Positions 1 to 12,086 of a stretch of DNA of 64,000 bases are shown piece after piece. The stretch is from Candidatus Melainabacteria bacterium 17Bon1m (GTDB lineage Bacteria > Cyanobacteriota > Vampirovibrionia > Obscuribacterales > Obscuribacteraceae). The position numbers were made by a program, and so were the translations under genes. The notes beneath the pieces were generated by a model that was given only the letters and a program-made list of their open reading frames with translations, had not been told where the DNA came from and searched no databases. The stretch is from the NCBI GenBank assembly GCA_032128875.1, contig JAVLKG010000001.1, positions 1,049,453-1,113,452 of the forward strand, given 5' to 3'. Each line of letters starts with the position of its first letter. Within the stretch, counting starts at the first letter, position 1.

Positions 1-224
1 TGACTTGCATATCGTTGCGCGGCTGATCTGACACGCTCAGCCACTTTCATCATGTACTCTTGTTTTTCTTTTTCGTTCTTGAATTGCGGGTTGACCATCT
101 TCTCAACCGGCGCAAAAAGCTCCTCAGCTTGAGCGATTGCCGGAAGCAAGAGCGCGGCTTGCCCCAGTAGCGACAATGCAGACGCTGCCAAAAAAATCCT
201 CAAGTTTATAGAAATGACCACCAT
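1..224 (-). CDS. Partial hypothetical exported protein; runs off the left edge of the window
   Basis: Manual translation from ATG at 224 gives MVVISINLRIFLAASALSLLGQAALLLPAIAQAEELFAPVEK... The frame stays open to base 1 and has a signal-peptide-like N-terminus ending AQA. Not in the ORF track because it has no stop. Confidence 0.6.
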   Translation of the reverse strand, partial: MVVISINLRIFLAASALSLLGQAALLLPAIAQAEELFAPVEKMVNPQFKNEKEKQEYMMKVAERVRSAAQRYAS

Positions 225-379
225 CGATTGGATTATATTCGATGACTAGGTGCTTTGGGTCGCCCGTAGGGGTGAATGCGACGGGTTTTGAGTTTTGTTT
301 TGCAGGTAAACCAGTTTCATTCTGTTGCGCAAACCAGTAAATTTCAGTTGCATATTGATGTTGCATCTAAAATATTGAA

Positions 380-907
380 ATGAAAGTTTCGAGTCAGGTA
401 ACGAAAATTACAGGCGATGCCGTCTTCGACAAAAGTCGACGTTATCGCTATTCGCTTTCGCGCCAATGGAACGCAGAACTACCAAGAGTTGTATTCGTCA
501 TGCTCAACCCGAGCAAGGCCGATGCATCTCTAAATGATCCGACTATCTCTCGTTGCATCTCATTTGCAGTTAGTCACGGATGCGGCGCTCTGGAGGTCGT
601 TAATCTGTTTGCTTTCCGAACGGCTTATCCCGAAGAGTTGCGCTCTTGTCGACGTCCTGTTGGAAAGCTCAACGATCAGTACATAACTGAGGCGGCCGAA
701 AGGGCTTCGATTGTGGTTGTAGCCTGGGGGAATTGGGGTTATCTGCACGGACGAGATGCTGAAGTGCTCGAGCTGATCGCCGCCAAGAACCCGCTCTTTT
801 GCTTTGGCATTACTCTAAAAGGGCAGCCGCGCCATCCGCTGTTCCTTCCCTCTGATATTCGTCTGGTTGAGCTTCCCCGTAAAGTCTCGCCCGGTTTGGC
901 TTTTTAG
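380..907 (+). CDS. DUF1643 domain-containing protein
   Basis: Motifs YRYSLSRQW, FVMLNPSKAD, DPTISRC, NLFAFRT, VVAWG and GQPRHPL are typical of DUF1643. Confidence 0.85.
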   Translation: MKVSSQVTKITGDAVFDKSRRYRYSLSRQWNAELPRVVFVMLNPSKADASLNDPTISRCISFAVSHGCGALEVVNLFAFRTAYPEELRSCRRPVGKLNDQYITEAAERASIVVVAWGNWGYLHGRDAEVLELIAAKNPLFCFGITLKGQPRHPLFLPSDIRLVELPRKVSPGLAF

Positions 908-936
908 CGTTTTGGCGACGTTTCAAAAAACTCTAA

Positions 937-962
937 GGAACTTGGAGGTACTTTCCGCGTCT
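937..962 (+). promoter_or_regulatory. ECF/sigmaE-type promoter GGAAC-N16-CGTCT
   Basis: ggaac ttggaggtactttccg cgtct, about 70 nt upstream of ORF 1031; one of seven copies. Confidence 0.7.
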
Positions 963-1030
963 CTCCGGCAGGTTTCCCGAAAAAACGATTTACGGGGCAG
1001 GGCAGGGGACCTAAAGACGTGGAGTGATTT

Positions 1031-1471
1031 ATGTCCAAGAGTTTTATTTCAGTATCAAAAATGATCTCAGGATCGGTTCTGGTGGGCACCACAATCTGTC
1101 TTCTTTGCTCGTGCTCTCAAAAGGTTTCGGAAACAAGTCATACGGGTGACGGTTACACGGAAAAGACAGAAGTCGTAAGAGAAGGCGACCATCTTAAGAC
1201 CACCACTGTAACAACAGAAATTGACCCTATTAACGGTGATAAGGACGATGTGCATATCACTACGTCCGAAGCTGACGGCATCCATGTGAGACTTCCTGAA
1301 GACGAAACAAATGATGGTCGTGTCAGAGTCCGTGCGCCTTTCGTGAAAATGGATTCCGATGATAACAGCGGTTCTGTGCATGTGCGCGCGCCGTTTCTTA
1401 AGGTGGACAAAGATGGGCATGGTGACCGCGTTCGCGTCAGAATCCCAGGTATCCACATCAACACAGACTAG
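1031..1471 (+). CDS. Hypothetical lipoprotein with short internal beta-repeats
   Basis: Hydrophobic N-terminus with lipobox-like LLCSC; repeats VRVRAPFVK, VHVRAPFLK and VRVRIPGIH. Confidence 0.7.
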   Translation: MSKSFISVSKMISGSVLVGTTICLLCSCSQKVSETSHTGDGYTEKTEVVREGDHLKTTTVTTEIDPINGDKDDVHITTSEADGIHVRLPEDETNDGRVRVRAPFVKMDSDDNSGSVHVRAPFLKVDKDGHGDRVRVRIPGIHINTD

Positions 1472-1522
1472 TACTTAAACCAAATAAACACCAAGCAACA
1501 GATCAACATAAGGAAAAAGAAA

Positions 1523-1963
1523 ATGGATAACGAATTTGTACATGAGTTTAATTCGCTTTTGGCAGGCGAGAGAAGCTGTGTGGAAACATACGATCTGGCG
1601 CTTAGTAAGGCAAAACAGGCTGACGTTTTGGAAACCTTGACCTACTGCCGTAACAATCACATGGCACGTGTTGCTCTGTTGACCAGTCACGTGCTGTCGA
1701 TGGGTGGCACTCCGAATGAAGGTTCGGGTATCTGGGGCGGTTTTGAAAAGTTCGTTCAGGACAGCGCTGCCAATGAGCGAGATGCTGTCGCTATGTTAGA
1801 ACAAGCTGAAGCAGAGCGTTTGGTCAATTACGAATCGCAACATGAATTGGTGATTGGACCAGTGAAAGTCTGCCTTGCTAACGAATTGCTCCCGGCGCAA
1901 CATGAAACGCACCTTGCATTGAGTACGTTATTGAAAAATCTGCCGGAAACCAAAGCTGCCTAG
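1523..1963 (+). CDS. Ferritin-like four-helix-bundle protein (DUF2383/PA2169-like)
   Basis: NSLLAGERSCVETY..H..RV..L...V...GG.P...SG.WG pattern; SD aagga upstream. Confidence 0.75.
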   Translation: MDNEFVHEFNSLLAGERSCVETYDLALSKAKQADVLETLTYCRNNHMARVALLTSHVLSMGGTPNEGSGIWGGFEKFVQDSAANERDAVAMLEQAEAERLVNYESQHELVIGPVKVCLANELLPAQHETHLALSTLLKNLPETKAA

Positions 1964-2119
1964 TTTTAGAGCGCTTTGTCTATCCGTTGAATCCAGCGAC
2001 CTCGCAAGCGCAACTGCTTTTGCAGCACTAACAAGTTAGACCGCCAGCATTATCCCCTCTCGCCATGAGTAGGGGATTTTTGCATGTTTTATAAAGTTCG
2101 ACACTTTTCTCATACGGGT

Positions 2120-2147
2120 GGAACCGTTTTTTTTCACCGGCGTCAAA
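2120..2147 (+). promoter_or_regulatory. ECF/sigmaE-type promoter GGAAC-N16-CGTCAAA
   Basis: ggaac cgttttttttcaccgg cgtcaaa, about 33 nt upstream of ATG 2180. Confidence 0.75.
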
Positions 2148-2179
2148 CCGGTATTCAACAATAAGTAAGAGGAAGTTTT

Positions 2180-3295
2180 ATGCCACAATCCACAAATGGC
2201 CGAAAGCTTCGCTATGGTATTGTCGGTCTTGGTCATATTGCCCAAGTCGCCGTCTTGCCGGCTTTCGAGCATGCGAAGAAAAATTCTGTACTAGCCGCAT
2301 TTGTTTCTGACGATGGGAAAAAGCTTAAAGAGCTTGGTAAGCATTATGGAGTTGACGCGCTCTATGACTACGATCATTTTGATGAATGCTTGCGTGAATC
2401 TGAACTGGACGCCGTATATATAGCTCTGCCCAACAATATGCACAAAGATTTTTCCATTCGCGCCGCAGAAGCTGGGGTACACGTTCTTTGTGAAAAACCT
2501 ATGGCGATGAACAGTGAAGAATGCATTCAAATGATTGAAGCAGCTGACCGAAATAATGTGAAATTGATGATTGCCTACCGGCTTCATTTTGAAGAAGCTA
2601 ACATGAAGATGGTAGAAGTTTGCCAGACTAAGAAGATCGGCGATCCACGCCTGTTTAACTCGACTTTTACGATGCAAGTCAAAGAAGGAAACATCCGCAC
2701 AAAAGGTGGTATGGGGGGCGGACCACTCTATGATATCGGCATATACTGCATCAACGCAGCCCGCTATCTTTTCCAAGCCGAGCCTTTGGAAGTGACTGCA
2801 CTTGCTGCTTCTTCCAGCGATGAAAGATTTGAATCAATCGATGAAACAGTCGGTGCCGTGATGCGTTTTCCTGACGAAAGAATTGCGACATTTGTCTGCA
2901 GTTTTGGCGCATCGGATAAAGGTCGATATGACGTTGTAGGTACCGAGGGACACTGCTCGATGGACCCGGCATATGATTATGCGATGGAATTGAAATACGA
3001 AATCAAGCAAGGTAAACGAACGACTGAAAAGGAAATTCCAAAGCGCGACCAATTTGCGCCAGAACTTCTTCACTTTTCCGATTGCATTATTAACGACACC
3101 ATTCCTGAGCCAAACGGTTTAGAAGGGTTGGCGGATATGTTGGTTATCGAAGCGATTAATGAATCGTTGATGACGGGCAAGACAGTCGGAGTCAAGTTAT
3201 TGGAGAAGGACTCTCGTCCTGGTCCGGAGCAGGTAATGAAAAAGCCTGGTGTGGATAAACCAAAACTGGTGCACGCCGAATCCGGCTCGAAATAA
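2180..3295 (+). CDS. Gfo/Idh/MocA family oxidoreductase (glucose-fructose oxidoreductase-like)
   Basis: GIVGLGHIA Rossmann motif, HVLCEKPMA, GGGPLYDIGIYCIN. Confidence 0.92.
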   Translation: MPQSTNGRKLRYGIVGLGHIAQVAVLPAFEHAKKNSVLAAFVSDDGKKLKELGKHYGVDALYDYDHFDECLRESELDAVYIALPNNMHKDFSIRAAEAGVHVLCEKPMAMNSEECIQMIEAADRNNVKLMIAYRLHFEEANMKMVEVCQTKKIGDPRLFNSTFTMQVKEGNIRTKGGMGGGPLYDIGIYCINAARYLFQAEPLEVTALAASSSDERFESIDETVGAVMRFPDERIATFVCSFGASDKGRYDVVGTEGHCSMDPAYDYAMELKYEIKQGKRTTEKEIPKRDQFAPELLHFSDCIINDTIPEPNGLEGLADMLVIEAINESLMTGKTVGVKLLEKDSRPGPEQVMKKPGVDKPKLVHAESGSK

Positions 3296-3301
3296 TAGTT
3301 C

Positions 3302-3384
3302 TTGCAAATTGACTGTAGTGGCGACGCCATGCGTCGCCCAGTTTGCAAATTTAACTGTAGGGCGACGCATGGCGTCGCCCGTTT
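3302..3384. repeat. Tandem pair of GTAG-type REP-like palindromes
   Basis: Two ~41-nt units: ttgcaaatt..actgtag-(t/g)ggcgacgc-cat/atg-gcgtcgccc. Confidence 0.75.
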
Positions 3385-3441
3385 CGGAACAACACCTTTT
3401 GCCAGTAAACGCAGACTGGCGCCACGTTTCTAAACGAATGC

Positions 3442-3469
3442 GGAACTATTGCCCGGCTCTTCGGTCTAA
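3442..3469 (+). promoter_or_regulatory. ECF/sigmaE-type promoter GGAAC-N16-GGTCTAA
   Basis: ggaac tattgcccggctcttc ggtctaa, about 50 nt upstream of ATG 3520. Confidence 0.75.
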
Positions 3470-3519
3470 CAGAAAAGCATCAAGAAGAGCATCAAATAAG
3501 GCATCGAGGAGACATCTTA

Positions 3520-4179
3520 ATGAACAAGATTTTGAATGCAATTTTCGGACTCTCCGCCGAATCCGGCGAAGCCGCTCATGCCGACATTGTTGAAATGTTG
3601 AAGGCTGATCACAGACGAGTAGCGGAATTGTTTGCAAGATACGAGAAATTGCCAGCAACTGCAACTCGTGAAAAGCGTAAAATCTTACGTGAAATTTTTG
3701 CTGAACTCGAGATTCACACGAAGTTAGAAGAAGAGCTTGTGTACCCAGAAGTTGAAGGTGCAGAGGAGCATGTAACTGAGGCTCACGAAGAGCATCATGT
3801 CATCGATCTGATTATCGCCGAGATAAAGAAAGTGAGATCGATGAATGAAAAGACTGATGCGAAAGTGAAAGTGCTTAAGGAAATGATTGAGCATCACGTC
3901 AAAGAAGAAGAGTGGGAAATGCTCCCAAGACTTCCCCAGGATGAGTTGGAAGAGATTGGTGCAAAGGTAAAGGTTCGCAAAGAAGAACTACTGGGCAAAG
4001 AGTTTCCAGAAAAGCATATGGAACGTGCTGGTGTTCAGCCAGTGGAAGAATTGTACGGTGGCAGCGAGACAGGCGAAGTTGTTTCGCAGAAAGATGCAGC
4101 AGAAGAAAAGCCCGTCACAAAAGAATCAACAACCAAACCGAAGACCAAGCGCTCACGTAAGAAGCATTCAGCTGCGTAG
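3520..4179 (+). CDS. Hemerythrin-like (HHE cation-binding) domain protein with basic C-terminal tail
   Basis: DHRRV, HTKLEEELVYP, EEHHV and HHVKEEE motifs; SD gaggag. Confidence 0.88.
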   Translation: MNKILNAIFGLSAESGEAAHADIVEMLKADHRRVAELFARYEKLPATATREKRKILREIFAELEIHTKLEEELVYPEVEGAEEHVTEAHEEHHVIDLIIAEIKKVRSMNEKTDAKVKVLKEMIEHHVKEEEWEMLPRLPQDELEEIGAKVKVRKEELLGKEFPEKHMERAGVQPVEELYGGSETGEVVSQKDAAEEKPVTKESTTKPKTKRSRKKHSAA

Positions 4180-4268
4180 TTTCGGCGTGTTCTGAATACG
4201 AACCGCCAAAACATGAACCTGGTGACCCTAATTAAGCCCACCACCGACACTAGATCGAGGATAGATTA

Positions 4269-5855
4269 ATGACTTTCTCCAGACCTTCCAAACCAATTTG
4301 GGATGACTCAACGGCGATGCCTGAATTTCAGCCGCTGGCGACTAATACCAGTTGTGATGTCGCGATTATCGGAGCGGGGGTGACGGGCTTGACCACCGCT
4401 TATTTGCTTGCGAAAGAAGGAAGGGATGTTCTAGTCCTCGATGACGGAGATGTTACTGGCGGGCAGACCGGGCGCACGACAGCCCACTTAACCGCTTTTA
4501 TGGATTTTCGCTACGAAGAACTTTTGCGCATGTTTGGCCAAGAAAAGACCACGAAAATTGCTGCAAGCCAGGTTGATGCTGTCGACGAAATCGGACACAT
4601 CGTTGCGCAAGAGCGTATCGATTGTGAATTCGCCAGGGTAGACGCATTTCTTTTGCTGGGGCGCGAAGACAAGACAGAGACACTGTTTAACGAGATGCAA
4701 GCGATGCAGAGTGTCGGGTTTGCAAATGTTGTTTTTGGCGAAACATCTCTTTGGGGGCACAGGGAAATTCCTTATCTGATGCTCAATCATCAAGCGCAAT
4801 TGGATATTCGCAAGTATATGTATGGTCTTGTTGCGCGTATTACAGAACTTGGTGGTCGAATACATTCGGGCACTCATATTGCTAGCTTCGAGAAGGGACA
4901 GCCTGCCGAACTTACGACTTCAAACGAACGCAAGATTACGGCTAACCATGTCGTGGTGGCTACCCATACTCCAATTACCGATTTGATTTCTATCCACACA
5001 AAACAGACCGCATATCGCACCTATGTGATCGGTGCGCAGGTCGAGCAAGACATCATCCCGCCAGGACTCTTCATGGACACGGAAGACCCTTATCATTACA
5101 TTCGCAGCACTCAATTGGGCGACAAAATGTATGTGATTATCGGAGGTGAAGATCATCGAACCGGGCAGGAGTCTGACTATGATGAGCGCTACGACAAATT
5201 GGAAGATTGGGCTAGAGAAATGCTGCCACAACTGGGCCCAATAGAATATCGCTGGTCAGGTCAAGTTTACGAACCTGTCGACGGTCTTCCCTTTATTGGC
5301 AAGGATCCAGGCCAGTCGGACAACTTCTACGTTGCCACCGGATATTCGGGCTCTGGTATCACCAATGGCACTATGGCTGCAAAGCTTATTAGAGACCAAA
5401 TTCTTGGAAAGGAAAATGAGCTGTTGGAGATTTACGACCCTGGTCGTAAGACCGCTGCAGCATTACCTGAATACGTAAAAGAAAACATCAATTCCGTAAG
5501 TCAGTATTCAAAGCATTTTTCAGGAGGGCAGGTTGCTTCTGCTGATGAAATTCCACCAGGTGAGGGAGCTGTCATCGCTAGAGGCGTTCAACACTTTGCT
5601 GTCTATAAGGATGCTAACGGGTCTGTTATTGAATGTTCTGCGGTATGCCCACATGCAAAAGGGATTGTCTGTTGGAACACCGCTGAGAAGACGTGGGACT
5701 GTCCAGCACACGGCTCCCGATTTAGCTGTACCGGTGAAGTGATTGACGGCCCTGCAAATACTAATCTGGAAGCGAAGCAAATCAGTGGTGAGCAAGATGA
5801 GTTTATGCAGATTCAATTGCCCCTGAAGAATCCGACCAAACTGCCTAGTCTCTGA
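4269..5855 (+). CDS. FAD-dependent oxidoreductase with C-terminal Rieske [2Fe-2S] domain (YhfW-like)
   Basis: GAGVTGLTTA FAD motif, GRTTAHLT, Rieske CPHAKG...WDCPAHGSRF. Confidence 0.9.
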   Translation: MTFSRPSKPIWDDSTAMPEFQPLATNTSCDVAIIGAGVTGLTTAYLLAKEGRDVLVLDDGDVTGGQTGRTTAHLTAFMDFRYEELLRMFGQEKTTKIAASQVDAVDEIGHIVAQERIDCEFARVDAFLLLGREDKTETLFNEMQAMQSVGFANVVFGETSLWGHREIPYLMLNHQAQLDIRKYMYGLVARITELGGRIHSGTHIASFEKGQPAELTTSNERKITANHVVVATHTPITDLISIHTKQTAYRTYVIGAQVEQDIIPPGLFMDTEDPYHYIRSTQLGDKMYVIIGGEDHRTGQESDYDERYDKLEDWAREMLPQLGPIEYRWSGQVYEPVDGLPFIGKDPGQSDNFYVATGYSGSGITNGTMAAKLIRDQILGKENELLEIYDPGRKTAAALPEYVKENINSVSQYSKHFSGGQVASADEIPPGEGAVIARGVQHFAVYKDANGSVIECSAVCPHAKGIVCWNTAEKTWDCPAHGSRFSCTGEVIDGPANTNLEAKQISGEQDEFMQIQLPLKNPTKLPSL

Positions 5856-5918
5856 AAACTCCATGCCCTCGCCGTTTAAGCGGGTTATAGACGCTGGGGT
5901 TTTCCCTATATCTGTAAA

Positions 5919-5946
5919 GGAACATGTAAAGCAATTCTGGGTCTTT
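5919..5946 (+). promoter_or_regulatory. ECF/sigmaE-type promoter GGAAC-N16-GGTCTTT
   Basis: ggaac atgtaaagcaattctg ggtcttt, upstream of small ORF 5978. Confidence 0.7.
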
Positions 5947-5977
5947 AAGTCCATAAGTGGAGATGGAGGCGACGAAA

Positions 5978-6181
5978 ATGAAAAGCAGTTCCGAACAAAA
6001 TATGAATGAAACGTCTTATTCAGTCGTGCAATTGAACAATGATTTGAAGCGAATGCTGTCTGTTCAATTCAAGGAATTCATTCACCACATTGAAGATCAC
6101 GAGCGCGTTGCGAGCATCGACTTTACTCGACCGAGACGCACCATTGCTTGGATCTCCATGTACGATAGAAAAATCGCTTAG
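5978..6181 (+). CDS. Small hypothetical protein (67 aa)
   Basis: SD ggagg precedes ATG 5978; it has its own ECF-type promoter and a hairpin follows the stop. Confidence 0.6.
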   Translation: MKSSSEQNMNETSYSVVQLNNDLKRMLSVQFKEFIHHIEDHERVASIDFTRPRRTIAWISMYDRKIA

Positions 6182-6290
6182 TCGCTGCCCGTCTACTTTA
6201 ATTGCGTTGAAACGTGAGAGAAGTAGACGAGCAAGTTTGAGTTAATATCTCGGATACAGAAGTGTTTTGTCACATCGGTGTGCCCAACTT
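6182..6290 (-). ncRNA. Candidate ECF-dependent small RNA (or small-peptide transcript)
   Basis: Lies downstream of the minus-strand promoter at 6321-6294; no ORF with an SD; hairpin at the 3' end. Confidence 0.4.
6185..6236. terminator. Inverted repeat / possible shared terminator hairpin
   Basis: gcccgtctactt ... aagtagacgagc; large loop and no strong U-tract. Confidence 0.45.
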
Positions 6291-6293
6291 TGG

Positions 6294-6321
6294 GTAGACC
6301 TCCGTCAGCATACTAAGTTCC
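6294..6321 (-). promoter_or_regulatory. ECF/sigmaE-type promoter GGAAC-N16-GGTCTAC (minus strand)
   Basis: Reverse complement reads GGAAC TTAGTATGCTGACGGA GGTCTAC. Confidence 0.65.
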
Positions 6322-6429
6322 CAACTTACCAAGTTAGATTTTCCGCCTTCTTTACTTGATGCAGAGGCGCCACGTTTTAGAGCACCGTTCAACTATTTCT
6401 AAAGTTGGCTCATCCATGACTCGGATGCG

Positions 6430-6458
6430 GGAACTGTTACCCTCACGCGTTGGTCCCA
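6430..6458 (+). promoter_or_regulatory. ECF/sigmaE-type promoter GGAAC-N17-GGTC
   Basis: ggaac tgttaccctcacgcgtt ggtccca, upstream of the BON / membrane protein / csbD unit. Confidence 0.55.
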
Positions 6459-6550
6459 CAACTGCGAGTTCAATAATGCCTTCGTTGCACTATTGCTCAC
6501 TGGCATTTATTACCGCAAAACAATCAACTCTATGAGAGGAGTTTTGTCAT

Positions 6551-7144
6551 ATGAAGACCCGAGCCTTTTTCACCCTTTCATCCGTTTTGGCGTCGTTAGC
6601 TCTCACTATCGCTCCAGTCCTTGCAAACAACGGTGTGGAGTTGAAAAATCGACTTGATTCTGCGGAAAGCAGAGGGTCGGTTTCGCGAGAAGCGCTTGTA
6701 CAGTTGCGGGCGGATCAGACAGCACTCGAGAAGCAGGAAGCGGACATTCGCGCTAAATACGATGGCTTGTTGCCGGCTCGAAAGGCTGTAAAGCTTACCA
6801 AAGAGCGGAAAAAGCTGATTGCAAAACTCGACAAAATCGAGTCGAGAAAGCCTGATAACACAGCTCAGAATTACGGTGATGCCCGCAAAGAGTCTCCGAC
6901 ACCACAAGTGCAATCGGGAAAGAAAGCCGACATCGATCGATTGCTTGCGATCAGAAAAGAGTTAGTTGGCGACAAGAGTCTTTCCAGCAACGCCAAGAAT
7001 GTGAAAGTCGTTGTGATCAACGGCACTGTCACTTTGCGTGGTGTAGTGAACAGTGAGTCCGAAAAGGTGAAAGTGGCCAGTGCTGCGCGTAAGTTCGCAG
7101 ATGATTCCAAAGTTTTGGATGAATTGGAGGTAAACACTCAATAA
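6551..7144 (+). CDS. Exported BON-domain protein
   Basis: Signal peptide (..APVLA); C-terminal BON motif LSSNAKNVKVVVINGTVTLRGVVNSESEK. Confidence 0.85.
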   Translation: MKTRAFFTLSSVLASLALTIAPVLANNGVELKNRLDSAESRGSVSREALVQLRADQTALEKQEADIRAKYDGLLPARKAVKLTKERKKLIAKLDKIESRKPDNTAQNYGDARKESPTPQVQSGKKADIDRLLAIRKELVGDKSLSSNAKNVKVVVINGTVTLRGVVNSESEKVKVASAARKFADDSKVLDELEVNTQ

Positions 7145-7168
7145 CTGAGCCTTGTAGGAGGGTTTGTA

Positions 7169-7696
7169 ATGTCAATTGCAGTTGTATGTTTGGTGAATGA
7201 TTTGATGCAGGCTGACACCATTGTTGGCAGCTTGAAGAACGCAGGTTTTAGAAGCGCGGATATCTCTTTGCTTATGCCCGACACCGCGGGCTTCAGAGAC
7301 GCCGGTTATGAAAAACACAGCAAGGCTCCGGAAGGCGCCTCCGCAGGCGCTGGTGCAGGTATGGTGCTAGGTGGTGCTTTGGGTTGGCTGGCTGGTGTGG
7401 GTGCTCTTGCATTGCCTGGTCTCGGTGCATTCATTGCTGCCGGGCCGATCATGGCAGCATTGAGTGGTGCCGCTGTTGGTGGCGCGGTGGGAGGAATGAG
7501 TGGCGGTTTGATCGGGCTTGGGATGCCGGAGATTGAAGCAAAACAATACGAAGGCAAGATGAAAGAGCTGAATCGCATTTTCATTTCTGTTCACACCGAG
7601 AATAAGGACGAGGTAAAAGTAGCCGAGAAGATTTTCAAAGATCTCGGAGCTAAAGACGTAAACGCTATTCACGAGGAAAAGGCGCATACACGCTAG
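7169..7696 (+). CDS. General-stress-type membrane protein with glycine zipper (DUF3341/YflT-like)
   Basis: APEGASAGAGAG..LGGALGWLAG...FIAAGPIMAAL...GLGMPEIEAKQYE. Confidence 0.75.
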   Translation: MSIAVVCLVNDLMQADTIVGSLKNAGFRSADISLLMPDTAGFRDAGYEKHSKAPEGASAGAGAGMVLGGALGWLAGVGALALPGLGAFIAAGPIMAALSGAAVGGAVGGMSGGLIGLGMPEIEAKQYEGKMKELNRIFISVHTENKDEVKVAEKIFKDLGAKDVNAIHEEKAHTR

Positions 7697-7743
7697 TTTT
7701 TAAACCTTACTGAAAATTTGAAAAACTAACAAAGGAGATAGAT

Positions 7744-7941
7744 ATGAACTGGGATCAAATTGAAGGCAATTGGAAACAATTCGAAGGTAAAGTAAAAACT
7801 CAGTGGGGCAAACTCACTGACGATGACTGGAAACTGGTCGAAGGAAAGAAAGATCAGCTGCTCGGAAAAATTCAAGAGCGTTATGGTCATAGTAAAGAAG
7901 CGGCCGAAAAGGAACTCGATGAGTTTTGCGCAAGGCTCTAA
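7744..7941 (+). CDS. csbD: CsbD family general stress protein
   Basis: MNWDQIEGNWKQFEGKVKTQWGKLTDDD...GKIQERYG; SD aaggag. Confidence 0.92.
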   Translation: MNWDQIEGNWKQFEGKVKTQWGKLTDDDWKLVEGKKDQLLGKIQERYGHSKEAAEKELDEFCARL

Positions 7942-7979
7942 TTGCGTTTGCCTCAGTTAGATTGCTTCATAAAAGCAGG

Positions 7980-8009
7980 AAAAAGTCCCGCCTATCGCGG
8001 GACTTTTTT
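7980..8009. terminator. Bidirectional intrinsic terminator
   Basis: aaaaagtcccgc ctatc gcgggactttttt. Confidence 0.85.
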
Positions 8010-8053
8010 GTGAGCTGAAATAACTAATTTGACTCTTTTTTAGCTCACGCGTG

Positions 8054-8138
8054 AAATACAAGAATAAGAAATCGGCGTAGGCACATGCAAACCTACGCCG
8101 ATTTCTATTGTCTTATGAGTTATCGATCCTTGTTCTCT
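8054..8138 (-). ncRNA. Candidate ECF-dependent small RNA (~85 nt) ending in a 15-bp hairpin
   Basis: Promoter at 8171-8144, then an A-rich single-stranded segment, a perfect stem AGAAATCGGCGTAGG/CCTACGCCGATTTCT and a U-rich tail. Confidence 0.5.
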
Positions 8139-8143
8139 GATTA

Positions 8144-8171
8144 CTGGACTAAGCGTCTATACCAAAGTTCC
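8144..8171 (-). promoter_or_regulatory. ECF/sigmaE-type promoter GGAAC-N16-AGTCCAG (minus strand)
   Basis: Reverse complement reads GGAAC TTTGGTATAGACGCTT AGTCCAG; shares GTTGGGAACTT with the 6321 site. Confidence 0.6.
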
Positions 8172-8308
8172 CAACCAAAAAAAGAAATTTTGTTTTTTGC
8201 GCGATTTTAGATCTTTGGTTCCGAGAGACAGCCCTGGTCCAATTTTCTCCAATTGGGTAGAATTGGCTCAGCTGTATCCGGAGTTCTTTGAATTGAAGAT
8301 TGTTGCGT

Positions 8309-9988
<1,680 letters not shown>

Positions 9989-10218
9989 CTATATAGTTGC
10001 AGAATATCTCGCCGGATCTTTACCGGGGACCTCTCGTCCAACCCTCTCCATAAATATAATGGATCTCCAGCCCGTCTGGCCGCCAATCTTTGAGGTTTTC
10101 TCTAAGTCTATACGGATCCAGTCTCGAGTCCACCCTTTATCTATGCTTGACGTACACGATTGGATCCTCAAGAGGATGGTCTGAAACGCCCAGCCCATCT
10201 TGTCATCCGGGCGTGAGC

Positions 10219-10503
10219 CTAATCGCCAATCTTGGGAACCTTGAAAAAGACCCCTTCTCGATCCGGAGCATTCTTTAGTAGAGATTCATGTCCAGGTGGC
10301 GTTACAACTTCGTCTTCTCTCAGCGCATTAGGCATAGGAATGGCATGAGACATGGGTTCTATGCCATCGGTCTGCACATCCTTTAGTTCATCAAACGCGT
10401 CGATTATCTTGGATAGCTGCTCGGCAAAGAGTTCTTTTTCTTCCGGCGTAAGCTCAAGCCGCGCCAGCTTTGCCACATGTTCAACATCCTTGATGGTAAT
10501 CAT
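10219..10503 (-). CDS. gatC: Asp/Glu-tRNA amidotransferase subunit C
   Basis: MITIKDVEHVAKLARLEL...LREDEV...NAP...FFKVPKI; start placed at ATG 10503. Confidence 0.92.
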   Translation of the reverse strand: MITIKDVEHVAKLARLELTPEEKELFAEQLSKIIDAFDELKDVQTDGIEPMSHAIPMPNALREDEVVTPPGHESLLKNAPDREGVFFKVPKIGD

Positions 10504-10913
10504 TTCAAAAACCTTCCCTGTTGTGGCTGGGAGCATATATTCTGCCTCACCTGCCAAACGCAATAACCGCAGCCAAATTACCACAGATCCCCGTACTCTT
10601 GACGGCTGCGCGAAGTAATCGAAACGTGGAGCTCACCCTCCAATTTCTAGCGAAATCGCAAGAACTTTCAGGTGCACCTGTAGCCGCAAAAATTCAAAAA
10701 GGACGCTATGGTCCATGGCGCTTACCTTTCGCTGATCTTTCTTCGGATGAGAGTCAAGTAACAAATTTTGGAGCGGAGTGCAGTTGAATTTTGCGCAAAA
10801 AATCACGCTACTTGGCAGTTGCCAGGGTGAAAGCGCCAATTAGCGCACCGCAATACAAGCAGCAGCTCTAGATTTCTGCTAAATTCAGTGAATCTATATA
10901 GATCGAGATCAAG

Positions 10914-12086
10914 ATGGGAATTCTGGGCGAAACAGGGCTCATATTAGCTGGATTAGTAATTATTGTTCTTGCAGCTGAGCTCTTTACAAATGGGATCGAA
11001 TGGTTGGGGCAGCGGCTCCAATTAAGCGAAGGTGTCGTGGGCAGCGTTCTGGCTGCAGTTGGTACCGCGTTGCCGGAGACGTTGATTCCATTCGTTGCAG
11101 TGATATTTTTCGGTGCAAAAAATGGTGAGTCTGTAGGTATCGGGGCAATTGCCGGCGCCCCGTTCATGCTCAGTACTCTGACTCTAGGTCTTTGTGGCTT
11201 GACGGTTTTACTGTGCTCTAAGGCTGGCAGTTCCAATCGTCCTAAAGAACTGCAGCTCAATCAGGTGGTAATCGCTCGCGATTTGCGCTTTTTCACTGCT
11301 GCCTACGCCATTGCTATGCTCGCAGTTTTGGCGTCTCCGTATGTTTATGTTCGCTACGTGATTGCGGTTGTTCTTTTCCTTATTTATCCGGTTTATCTCT
11401 GGCAGTGTTTTCAGCATGAAGGAGAAGTCGGAGAGCAGCCAGAACACTTGTTTTTGGACCGCCTATTTAAGTGCGGTTCGGACAAATTGCGTTTGATTAT
11501 TCCGCAGATCGTCATGGGGCTTGGCGGTATTATCGGCGGTGCGTTCATTTTCGTAGACCATGTCGACGATTTGGCTCGCTATCTGGGATTACCCGTTGTG
11601 GTCCTCTCTTTGATCATTACCCCGATAGCAACGGAGCTTCCGGAAAAGATCAATAGCGTTCTTTGGGCTCGCCAGGGAAAAGACACACTGGCTTTGGGAA
11701 ACATCACGGGCGCTCTCGTGTTTCAGAGCTGCATTCCGGTAGCATTCGGCGTGGGTTGCACCCGTTGGAATCTCGACAGCGGAACGATTTTGACTGGCAT
11801 TGTCGCAGTCATATCAGGAACGATTTACATGCTTTTGCTCAAAGCAAACAAGCTGACTGCAACACATTTGACCTGCGGTATGCTCGCTTATGCCGTATCT
11901 ATAGGTTCTTTCGTCTTAATAGACTATCTCGATGGCGGACTGGAGTACTTGAAGCCAGGTGAGGAGGCTCCTCCCATGCATCATGGCTCGTTCGAGCCCA
12001 CTGAATCTAAGTACGCACAACCGATTGCTTATGCCGGAGCATCGGCAAATTACACCTTTCCTCTTATTGAACCGAGTCGAGCTTAA
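10914..12086 (+). CDS. Sodium:calcium antiporter family (CaCA) protein
   Basis: Alpha-repeat motifs AVGTALPET and PIATELPEK..GNITG; multiple TM helices. Confidence 0.88.
   Translation: MGILGETGLILAGLVIIVLAAELFTNGIEWLGQRLQLSEGVVGSVLAAVGTALPETLIPFVAVIFFGAKNGESVGIGAIAGAPFMLSTLTLGLCGLTVLLCSKAGSSNRPKELQLNQVVIARDLRFFTAAYAIAMLAVLASPYVYVRYVIAVVLFLIYPVYLWQCFQHEGEVGEQPEHLFLDRLFKCGSDKLRLIIPQIVMGLGGIIGGAFIFVDHVDDLARYLGLPVVVLSLIITPIATELPEKINSVLWARQGKDTLALGNITGALVFQSCIPVAFGVGCTRWNLDSGTILTGIVAVISGTIYMLLLKANKLTATHLTCGMLAYAVSIGSFVLIDYLDGGLEYLKPGEEAPPMHHGSFEPTESKYAQPIAYAGASANYTFPLIEPSRA

Follow-up and report, generated by a model that had tools for sequence, protein, structure and literature searches.

Seven promoter-like sites in a cluster of protective genes

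The window, by which we mean the whole stretch of DNA analyzed here, comprises 64,000 nucleotides of Candidatus Melainabacteria bacterium 17Bon1m (contig C1, 1049453-1113452, of the genome that we call G000, an assembly of 7.55 Mb in 35 contigs). Within its first 8.2 kb is an island of genes in which a bipartite motif, GGAAC followed 17 or 18 nt later by GTC, occurs seven times. A sequence-only reading of the window had described seven sites of the form GGAAC-N16/17-xGTC as the hidden regulon of a sigma factor with extracytoplasmic function (ECF). All seven were recovered by a pattern search of the window: the six given with 16 nt before xGTC are GGAAC-N17-GTC, four of them on the plus strand (937, 2120, 3442 and 5919) and two on the minus strand (6321 and 8171), and the seventh, at 6430-6455 on the plus strand, is GGAAC-N18-GTC. 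We argue that the sites are probably promoters of an RpoE/SigG-type ECF (group 4) sigma factor, most likely one encoded on contig C2 and here called the C2 sigma, with about 150 promoters genome-wide.

The sites, P1 to P7, are all intergenic, and P1 to P5 end 34 to 95 nt ahead of start codons. P1 (937-961, plus strand, N17) ends 69 nt before the ATG of a gene for a 146-amino-acid (aa) protein without a family (1031-1471, plus), which is followed, also behind P1, by the gene for a DUF2383 protein (1523-1963, plus). P2 (2120-2144, plus, N17) lies 35 nt before a Gfo/Idh/MocA oxidoreductase gene (2180-3295, plus). P3 (3442-3466, plus, N17) lies 53 nt before a hemerythrin-domain gene (3520-4179, plus), after which comes a gene for a flavin adenine dinucleotide (FAD) oxidoreductase with a Rieske domain (4269-5855, plus); no motif separates the two, and they are therefore probably one operon. 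P4 (5919-5943, plus, N17) is 34 nt from a 67-aa gene without a family (5978-6181, plus), and P5 (6430-6455, plus, N18) is 95 nt from the gene for a BON-domain protein (6551-7144, plus). The BON gene is the first of a probable operon (6551-7941) that continues with a 175-aa protein that resembles YflT/general-stress-17M and has a membrane segment rich in glycine (7169-7696, plus; a protein-atlas lead with a score of 0.95) and ends with CsbD (7744-7941, plus), the sole CsbD gene in the genome. On the minus strand, P6 (6297-6321, N17) is divergent from P5, and P7 (8147-8171, N17) stands ahead of a candidate small RNA. A GC-rich hairpin flanked by T runs on both sides (7980-8008) separates csbD from the small-RNA candidate and resembles a terminator for both directions. 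As part of the best explanation, we think it quite likely that the island consists of five transcription units of protective genes, the candidate small RNA and one minus-strand promoter, P6.

The motif is kept where the island is kept. Eight congeners were examined for the island gaps (G011, G007, G002, G005, G008, G003, G012 and G009, which are not independent samples), and there the island is syntenic at 69-90% DNA identity. Both boxes are present at 43/43 orthologous positions assembled in them: P1 in 7/7 loci with the gap, P2 in 5/5 loci with the gene start, P3 in 7/7, P4 in 6/6 (N18 in two), P5 in 6/6 (N17 in one), P6 in 6/6 and P7 in all six congeners having the region. The spacers, by comparison, have mostly changed in sequence, with occasional exchange of N17 for N18 or the reverse. 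G008 and G009 lack both the oxidoreductase gene and P2. Conservation near orthologs had been suggested as a check on the original reading, and the motif passes it at every position assembled.

The motif is directional and occurs across the genome

By itself, the excess of the motif in the window is only suggestive: the N16/17 pattern occurs 10 times, compared with 3.57 ± 1.78 in dinucleotide shuffles, and 10 copies were reached in 1 of 100 shuffles. Position is more telling within the window, as the other 28 gaps of at least 60 nt (from crude open reading frame [ORF] calls) hold no copy, in agreement with the sequence-only reading, which had found none in other intergenic regions. An additional N17 copy at window 50963 was called coding and lies 81 nt ahead of the next gene. 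Moreover, nowhere in the genome are the motifs packed more densely than in the island, where 8 kb contain 7 sites and 0.39 would be expected (Poisson P = 2e-7).

At genome scale, GGAAC-Nx-GTC was counted in the intergenic DNA of G000 for x of 8 to 27. N17 was found 125 times and N18 46 times, and the other 18 spacers were found 6 to 20 times each; 40 Markov-1 simulations of the intergenic segments gave 17.3 ± 4.0 for N17 and 16.2 ± 4.3 for N18. The enrichment over background that had been proposed as a test of the motif is thus present. Each box is specific when the other is held constant: with GGAAC fixed, GTC is the sole enriched triplet among 64 at N17 (125, background 12.3), and with GTC fixed at N17, GGAAC is the sole enriched pentamer (125, background 12.6). 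Preferences beyond the boxes are weak (T after GGAAC, C before GTC and T after GTC). The sites are also oriented, as 140 of the 171 intergenic copies point toward the next gene and 31 away (p = 1e-17). The next co-oriented gene is 0-150 nt away in 107 of the 170 cases measured, and a co-oriented gene start lies within 250 nt at 123 of the 171 sites.

Together, the spacer, box, orientation and cluster statistics lead us to conclude that the GGAAC...GTC motif is real and directional and marks about 150 places across the genome, not just those of the island. A chance origin of the sites was ruled out by the enrichment of spacer, box and orientation. The earlier proposal of an island regulon therefore holds in part: the motif behaves as an ECF-type promoter, but it is not confined to the island.

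Alternatively, the motif might be a transcription factor binding site or a fragment of a dispersed repeat and no promoter at all, and P6, which lacks a conserved downstream product, would fit such an origin. Two boxes at a fixed 17 or 18 nt, a free spacer, a bias in orientation and a position near start codons are, however, what recognition by a sigma factor predicts, and the boxes equal the consensus of the closest characterized relatives of the C2 sigma. As the sequence-only reading had noted for the spacers, both spacers and flanks are unrelated among sites; thus, the motif is not a repeat family, and a dispersed-repeat origin was ruled out on this ground. We regard the alternative as a whole as highly improbable.

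The second densest cluster, 5 sites in 8 kb, is at contig C12, 114041-119942, and surrounds genes for a thiamine-pyrophosphate enzyme, a phosphoribosyltransferase and a 174-aa protein without a family.

The abundance of the motif varies among relatives. Whole-genome counts of N17 exceed those of N14 in 12/12 congeners by a factor of 1.17-2.40, compared with 0.62-1.43 in six genomes of other genera of the family and about 1 in twelve genomes of other families, where counts are small. Other spacers served as the control because a pattern read backward has a base rate different from that of the forward pattern. Relative to that backward-read control, a crude measure, N17 stands at 0.84 here (N14 here at 0.50) and, for five complete genomes representing other classes of the phylum Cyanobacteriota, at 0.26-0.46, and the regulon is thus much larger here than in those classes. 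A large regulon seems particular to this genus and its near kin.

A candidate cognate sigma factor and anti-sigma factor

The genome has 17 genes of the sigma-70 family: seven of group 1/2 type, two SigF-like and eight ECF-like. None is inside the window, and the best candidate to read the motif is a presumably self-regulated ECF gene on another contig, in line with the earlier expectation that the sigma factor would be encoded outside. Among the eight ECF-like genes, only the one at contig C2, 406949-407575, has an exact upstream motif, a GGAAC-N18-GTC copy at 406894-406919 that ends 29 nt before the ATG, to which a GAGGAG ribosome site belongs.

The C2 sigma is 208 aa long and contains the domains Sigma70_r2 and r4_2. 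Among NCBIfam models it scores best with RpoE, SigW and SigE, without reaching the equivalog cutoff of any of them (for the RpoE equivalog TIGR02939, 144.2 bits against 236.15), and it exceeds the cutoff of the superfamily model TIGR02937 (sigma70-ECF; 111 bits against 42.9). The nearest solved structures include 6in7_B (sigma-H/AlgU type), 6jbq_F and Escherichia coli sigma-E, 1or7_A, at 2.9e-28. The homologous proteins listed were all close relatives with generic names, at 79-96% identity, and are uninformative on SigG orthology. For the C2 sigma, one of the eight, the classification that the sequence-only reading had recommended gives an RpoE/SigG-like factor. The next gene overlaps the C2 sigma stop codon by 4 nt and encodes a 304-aa protein with three zf-HC2 stretches, in which three HxxxCxxC motifs and one hydrophobic segment can be recognized by eye. 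The product is likely a membrane-anchored zinc-finger anti-sigma factor.

A second copy of the motif lies inside the C2 sigma coding region (C2, 407389-407413), 158 nt before the start of the anti-sigma gene, and was found in 60/60 orthologous loci. These loci represent 51 distinct DNA versions, and in 51/51 the boxes are spelled by the same codons, CCG for Pro, GAA for Glu, ATC for Ile and GTC for Val. In the same 51 versions, the codons of neighboring invariant residues (Leu, Arg, Thr, Glu and Gly) vary among 2-6 synonymous forms. Frozen synonymous codons beside variable neighbors argue for selection on the DNA itself at the internal copy. Of 66 related sigma loci, 20 retain the upstream copy, mostly those with at least 80% protein identity, with diverged spacers.

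The association of motif and sigma gene extends beyond the class. At 20 loci from other classes of the phylum, the best match to the C2 sigma is a single gene whose product is 49-55% identical (54% over 195 residues for locus L216), compared with 45-49% for four paralogs within the genome. GGAAC-N17/18-GTC stands upstream of the sigma ortholog in 19 of the 20, about 35 nt before the ATG in L216, and a zf-HC2 gene follows the orthologous sigma gene in the two of these loci that were examined, L216 and L226. In a small-genome family of the same class, the upstream motif was found in 0/9 loci. Because of the upstream motif in other classes, an identity above that of the paralogs and the published SigG motifs, we infer that the C2 sigma is the SigG ortholog, and it is most likely the cognate sigma factor of the motif.

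The motif might instead be read mainly, or also, by the four paralogous ECF sigma factors (contig C3, 923114; C9, 113013; C1, 337704; and C10, 218786). In that case, the roughly 150 sites would make up several regulons that overlap, split, for example, by N17 and N18 or by flanking bases. In addition to their identity with the C2 sigma, the paralogs have in common with it the helix GTVKSRI-RAR of region 4.2, as well as much of region 2, and with a common region 4.2 helix they may read the same -35 box. None of them has the motif within 400 nt upstream, however, whereas the C2 sigma has it upstream and internally, with synonymous sites frozen in 60/60 orthologs, and the link of motif to sigma gene also holds in other classes of the phylum. 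We therefore consider it unlikely that the paralogs are the principal or joint readers and retain the C2 sigma as the preferred candidate.

Several features surround the sigma locus. A divergent GGAAC-N18-GTC copy (C2, 406732-406757, minus strand) points at metK, for S-adenosylmethionine synthetase (405249-406673), and is kept in 6/60 related loci, the closest relatives only. The third gene of the sigma operon (C2, 408458-409018; L001, 4459-5019) encodes a glutamine-rich protein of 186 aa, without a Pfam family above the cutoff, which by eye looks like a periplasmic coiled-coil and could belong to the signal input. Elsewhere in the genome and outside the window (locus L252; C1, 21003-22909), a 192-aa ECF sigma gene with a one-base variant of the motif upstream (GGAAT-N18-GTC) lies just 2 nt ahead of a 441-aa ORF. 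The C-terminal 280 residues of this ORF are a full group 1/2 sigma factor (regions 1.2, 2, 3 and 4), and its first 50 or so residues hold an HxxxCxxC motif by eye, where zf-HC2 is not called by Pfam.

Genes downstream of the motif

Outside the island, the motif precedes 119 further genes, 68 of them with a Pfam family. Counting family members over the cutoff, the motif stands ahead of 1/1 CsbD, 2/2 BON and 5/6 hemerythrin genes of the genome. Protection genes downstream include the second BON and a second hemerythrin gene and those for a glycine-zipper protein, Usp, Pyrid_ox_like, two SRPBCC proteins, TspO, DoxX, MscL, trehalose-phosphate synthase, a glycogen-debranching-type enzyme and Nramp. 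DNA repair is represented by LigD and PolX, enzymes acting on lipids by three patatins and NAD synthesis by NadE and NadC. Envelope genes comprise two Amidase_2, an M23 peptidase, two DPBB, TonB, a PDZ protein, three HlyD and one OEP, and regulatory genes comprise two group-2 sigma genes, four histidine kinases, four GGDEF proteins and KaiB. We interpret the set as a stress regulon of wide scope in which envelope functions are prominent. The general stress response proposed earlier fits this content, CsbD, BON and hemerythrin above all, and induction by stress is deduced from the content.

Perhaps, the system is one of cell envelope repair, as has been reported for Nostoc punctiforme SigG and E. 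coli sigma-E, and not of general stress, and the apparent general stress genes are protectants associated with the envelope. The Amidase_2, M23, DPBB, TonB, PDZ and HlyD genes, the OEP efflux part and MscL would all suit such a role, the BON, glycine-zipper and YflT-like proteins are associated with membrane or periplasm, and SigG is described in cell envelope repair in a passage of PMC6495340 that cites Bell 2017. Against it, the set also contains cytoplasmic and DNA functions (LigD, PolX, NadE, NadC, trehalose-phosphate synthase, Usp, hemerythrins, the group-2 sigma genes and KaiB), and the regulon is much larger here than in the five other-class genomes by the N17 ratio given above. We find a pure envelope response doubtful, if less so than a role for the paralogs, and continue to favor the broad stress regulon.

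A candidate small RNA and other features of the island

The DNA after P7 is the best-conserved noncoding DNA of the region: an invariant GAGAACAAGGATCGATAACTC, a 16-bp hairpin and a U-rich tail, followed by divergence. The predicted product is a small RNA of about 85 nt (8055-8141, minus strand), with a 35-nt unpaired 5' part that includes the 21-nt invariant stretch, then the hairpin and the tail. Folding of the 87 nt from 8141 to 8055 gives -32.9 kcal/mol (z = -6.3), and the hairpin was picked up by a terminator scan. No Rfam match was found at an E value of 1 or below in window 1-9000, and no ORF was seen by eye in the candidate.

The small-RNA candidate is present in 6/12 congeners, the six others being assemblies 64-90% complete; promoter, invariant stretch and hairpin are thus present in 7 genomes, and the candidate was found in 0/58 genomes from 36 other genera of the family. 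Covariation in the hairpin amounts to one compensatory pair, which 46 of 500 shuffles equal and which is too weak to count as support. A search for targets by exact 11-mers complementary to the 5' 36 nt gave 65 matches elsewhere, none clearly at a start codon, and rough arithmetic puts the chance expectation at about 90. On conservation and fold, we somewhat favor the view that P7 drives a sigma-dependent small RNA. All eight contigs of four RNA-labeled runs break at window 8078-8096, inside the hairpin, and in G005 the island and the small-RNA region are on different contigs; the 16-bp palindrome seems to break assemblies.

P6, the other minus-strand site, is always about 100-150 nt from P5 and divergent from it in 6/6 congener loci, and no conserved product was found in the DNA downstream of it, which itself lacks conservation. 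Three congeners, G007 (L089, 5928-7553), G003 (L093, 426-1901) and G008 (L072, 1-734), have two extra plus-strand genes inserted there, between the 67-aa gene and P6/P5, which encode an RNA-binding protein (RRM type, about 100 aa) and a protein of 116 aa; G000 and G011 lack them.

At the other end of the island, a DUF1643 gene (380-907) lies directly upstream of P1, occupies the same place in congeners and is without a motif itself. Two adjoining copies of a short palindromic element with the core GGCGACGCCATGCGTCGCC occur in window 3311-3385, after the oxidoreductase gene and before P3. A search with the island DNA found dozens of 30- to 70-nt matches to 3311-3385 scattered on many contigs of G000 and congeners, which suggests a dispersed repeat of the genus resembling repetitive extragenic palindromic (REP) elements or miniature inverted-repeat transposable elements (MITEs).

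Discussion

How the C2 sigma might work can be sketched from the parts. What is observed is the motif with its spacing, orientation and conservation, the link of the motif to the sigma gene and the gene content. In the model that we infer, which extends to where transcription starts, its dependence on the C2 sigma, the signal that induces it and what the small RNA does, the membrane-anchored anti-sigma factor with its three HxxxCxxC motifs would keep the sigma factor inactive until a signal inactivates it. The zinc-finger motifs may allow redox sensing, and the membrane anchor may allow regulated proteolysis. Free sigma factor would then bind GGAAC, as the -35 box, through region 4 and GTC, as the -10 box 17 or 18 nt on, through region 2, and transcription would start a few bases after GTC. 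In this way the sigma factor would turn on its own operon, and the promoter inside its coding region would feed the anti-sigma gene and provide negative feedback. Free sigma factor would also activate about 150 promoters across the genome, of which the island is the densest cluster.

Several points weigh against this interpretation. The gene calls are crude (longest ORFs of at least 80 aa), such that some true sites are called coding and some called intergenic may lie in short genes, and the assembly is 93% complete with 4.5% contamination in its 35 contigs. Chance would be expected to supply some 12-17 of the N17 sites (125 in all) and roughly as many of the N18 sites (46 in all); the true number is somewhat above 171 minus chance because two sites of family members were miscalled coding owing to overlong ORFs. 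Among the 119 further downstream genes, 51 have no Pfam family and the others mix envelope and general stress functions, for which reason "general stress" is a reading of gene content. The upstream copy is absent from 46 of the 66 related sigma loci, many of which have, by eye, an extended -10 of housekeeping type. Moreover, a tblastn search with the anti-sigma protein gave no match at an E value of 0.01 or below in the 20 other-class loci and weak matches in 9 same-class loci, and the resemblance of the four paralogs in regions 2 and 4.2 has been noted. Finally, the four RNA-labeled runs hold window 1-12000 as contigs of 9-57 kb (22-57 kb for the parts with P1-P6) at flat depth and are uninformative on transcripts.

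Melainabacteria and Obscuribacterales, which are nonphotosynthetic relatives of cyanobacteria, are known almost solely from metagenome assemblies, and we know of no publication on their gene regulation. A literature search found nothing on sigma factors of Melainabacteria or Obscuribacterales, and Obscuribacter combined with sigma factor returned only a list of names. The sequence-only reading had claimed novelty for the lineage, and nothing that the search found speaks against it there; the GGAAC/GTC pair itself, however, is already predicted for cyanobacterial SigG in a part of PMC8155712. The available text of the ECF reclassification paper names no group for cyanobacterial ECFs, and the main body of Todor et al. 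2020, as far as available, has no GGAAC or GTC text, though its supplementary tables may list a predicted regulon for related sigma factors.

We speculate, tentatively and somewhat short of an even chance, that a SigG-type ECF sigma factor has grown in this genus from a small regulator of envelope repair to a master of general stress. It would command about 150 promoters, those of two group-2 sigma genes among them (a sigma cascade), a genus-specific small RNA and a feedback promoter embedded in codons and frozen across the order. If so, a SigG-type sigma would fill the role that sigma-B, RpoS or EcfG has in other phyla. A regulatory map is offered in any case, consisting of a sigma/anti-sigma pair, a DNA signal, about 150 candidate target promoters and a candidate small RNA, and the promoter conserved phylum-wide ties that map to SigG of photosynthetic cyanobacteria. 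The frozen synonymous codons in the sigma gene would be a clean example of a coding-embedded promoter. Regulon size, small RNA and codon-embedded feedback promoter are the parts worth following, and the parts are small enough for study in a surrogate host without culturing the organism.

How does the system compare with those already known? EcfG recognizes a -35 box GGAAC and a -10 box CGTT and governs a wide range of protective genes, CsbD, BON and the like among them. The system here is like that of alphaproteobacterial EcfG in having an ECF sigma factor, a broad protective gene set with CsbD and BON and a GGAAC -35 box. EcfG-type promoters were nevertheless rejected, as GTT is not among the enriched triplets at N17 and the relatives of the C2 sigma are RpoE and SigG. 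Of the two resemblances drawn in the sequence-only reading, the one to RpoE (SigG) promoters stands and the one to EcfG promoters falls with the missing GTT. CsbD, YflT/GSP17M-like and general-stress-26-like proteins are members of the sigma-B regulon of Bacillus subtilis, and the genes here overlap with it in CsbD, the YflT/GSP17M-like protein and a general-stress-26-like Pyrid_ox_like protein. Sigma-B, however, is a group 3 sigma factor with a different promoter and control by partner switching, unlike the C2 ECF.

The E. coli sigma-E promoter consensus has GGAAC at -35 and GTC/TC at -10 with the same spacing. Promoter geometry, a predicted self-activated operon and the presence of sigma-E among the nearest solved structures (1or7_A and 6jbq_F) liken the present system to it. 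Moreover, the E. coli rseA promoter P3 is sigma-E dependent and lies inside the rpoE coding region, 228 nt before rseA, according to a section of PMC8595263; the second motif inside the C2 sigma coding region, predicted here from sequence to feed the anti-sigma gene, would be its counterpart. Small RNAs dependent on sigma-E belong to the E. coli regulon, as an excerpt of PMC4102768 describes. There are also differences. The C2 sigma scores below the RpoE equivalog cutoff, the anti-sigma factor here is a triple zf-HC2 protein and not RseA, and the regulon is larger, with genes of general stress, DNA repair and signaling and a candidate small RNA without an Rfam family.

The closest likeness is to cyanobacterial SigG and SapG. 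For Synechocystis SigG, a part of PMC8155712 gives predicted motifs of GGAAC at -35 and GTC at -10, and a portion of PMC2758279 reports that one mapped sigG promoter is RpoE-like and that sigG-sapG is conserved in cyanobacteria. Here, too, a sigma gene is followed by a zf-HC2 gene, the specificity is GGAAC/GTC, and the upstream motif is found in 19/20 other-class loci. Unlike at those loci, for which the SigG label is itself deduced, the anti-sigma factor here carries three zinc-finger motifs, no similarity of it to the products of their downstream genes could be detected, and the motif excess is far larger here than in other-class genomes. The predicted internal promoter is seen across this order, with sequences of the same shape, by eye, in other families of the class, whereas in L216, of another class, Val follows Pro-Glu and GGAAC is excluded at the internal position. 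Most likely, then, the system is the local form of cyanobacterial SigG/SapG, working like sigma-E/RseA of E. coli.

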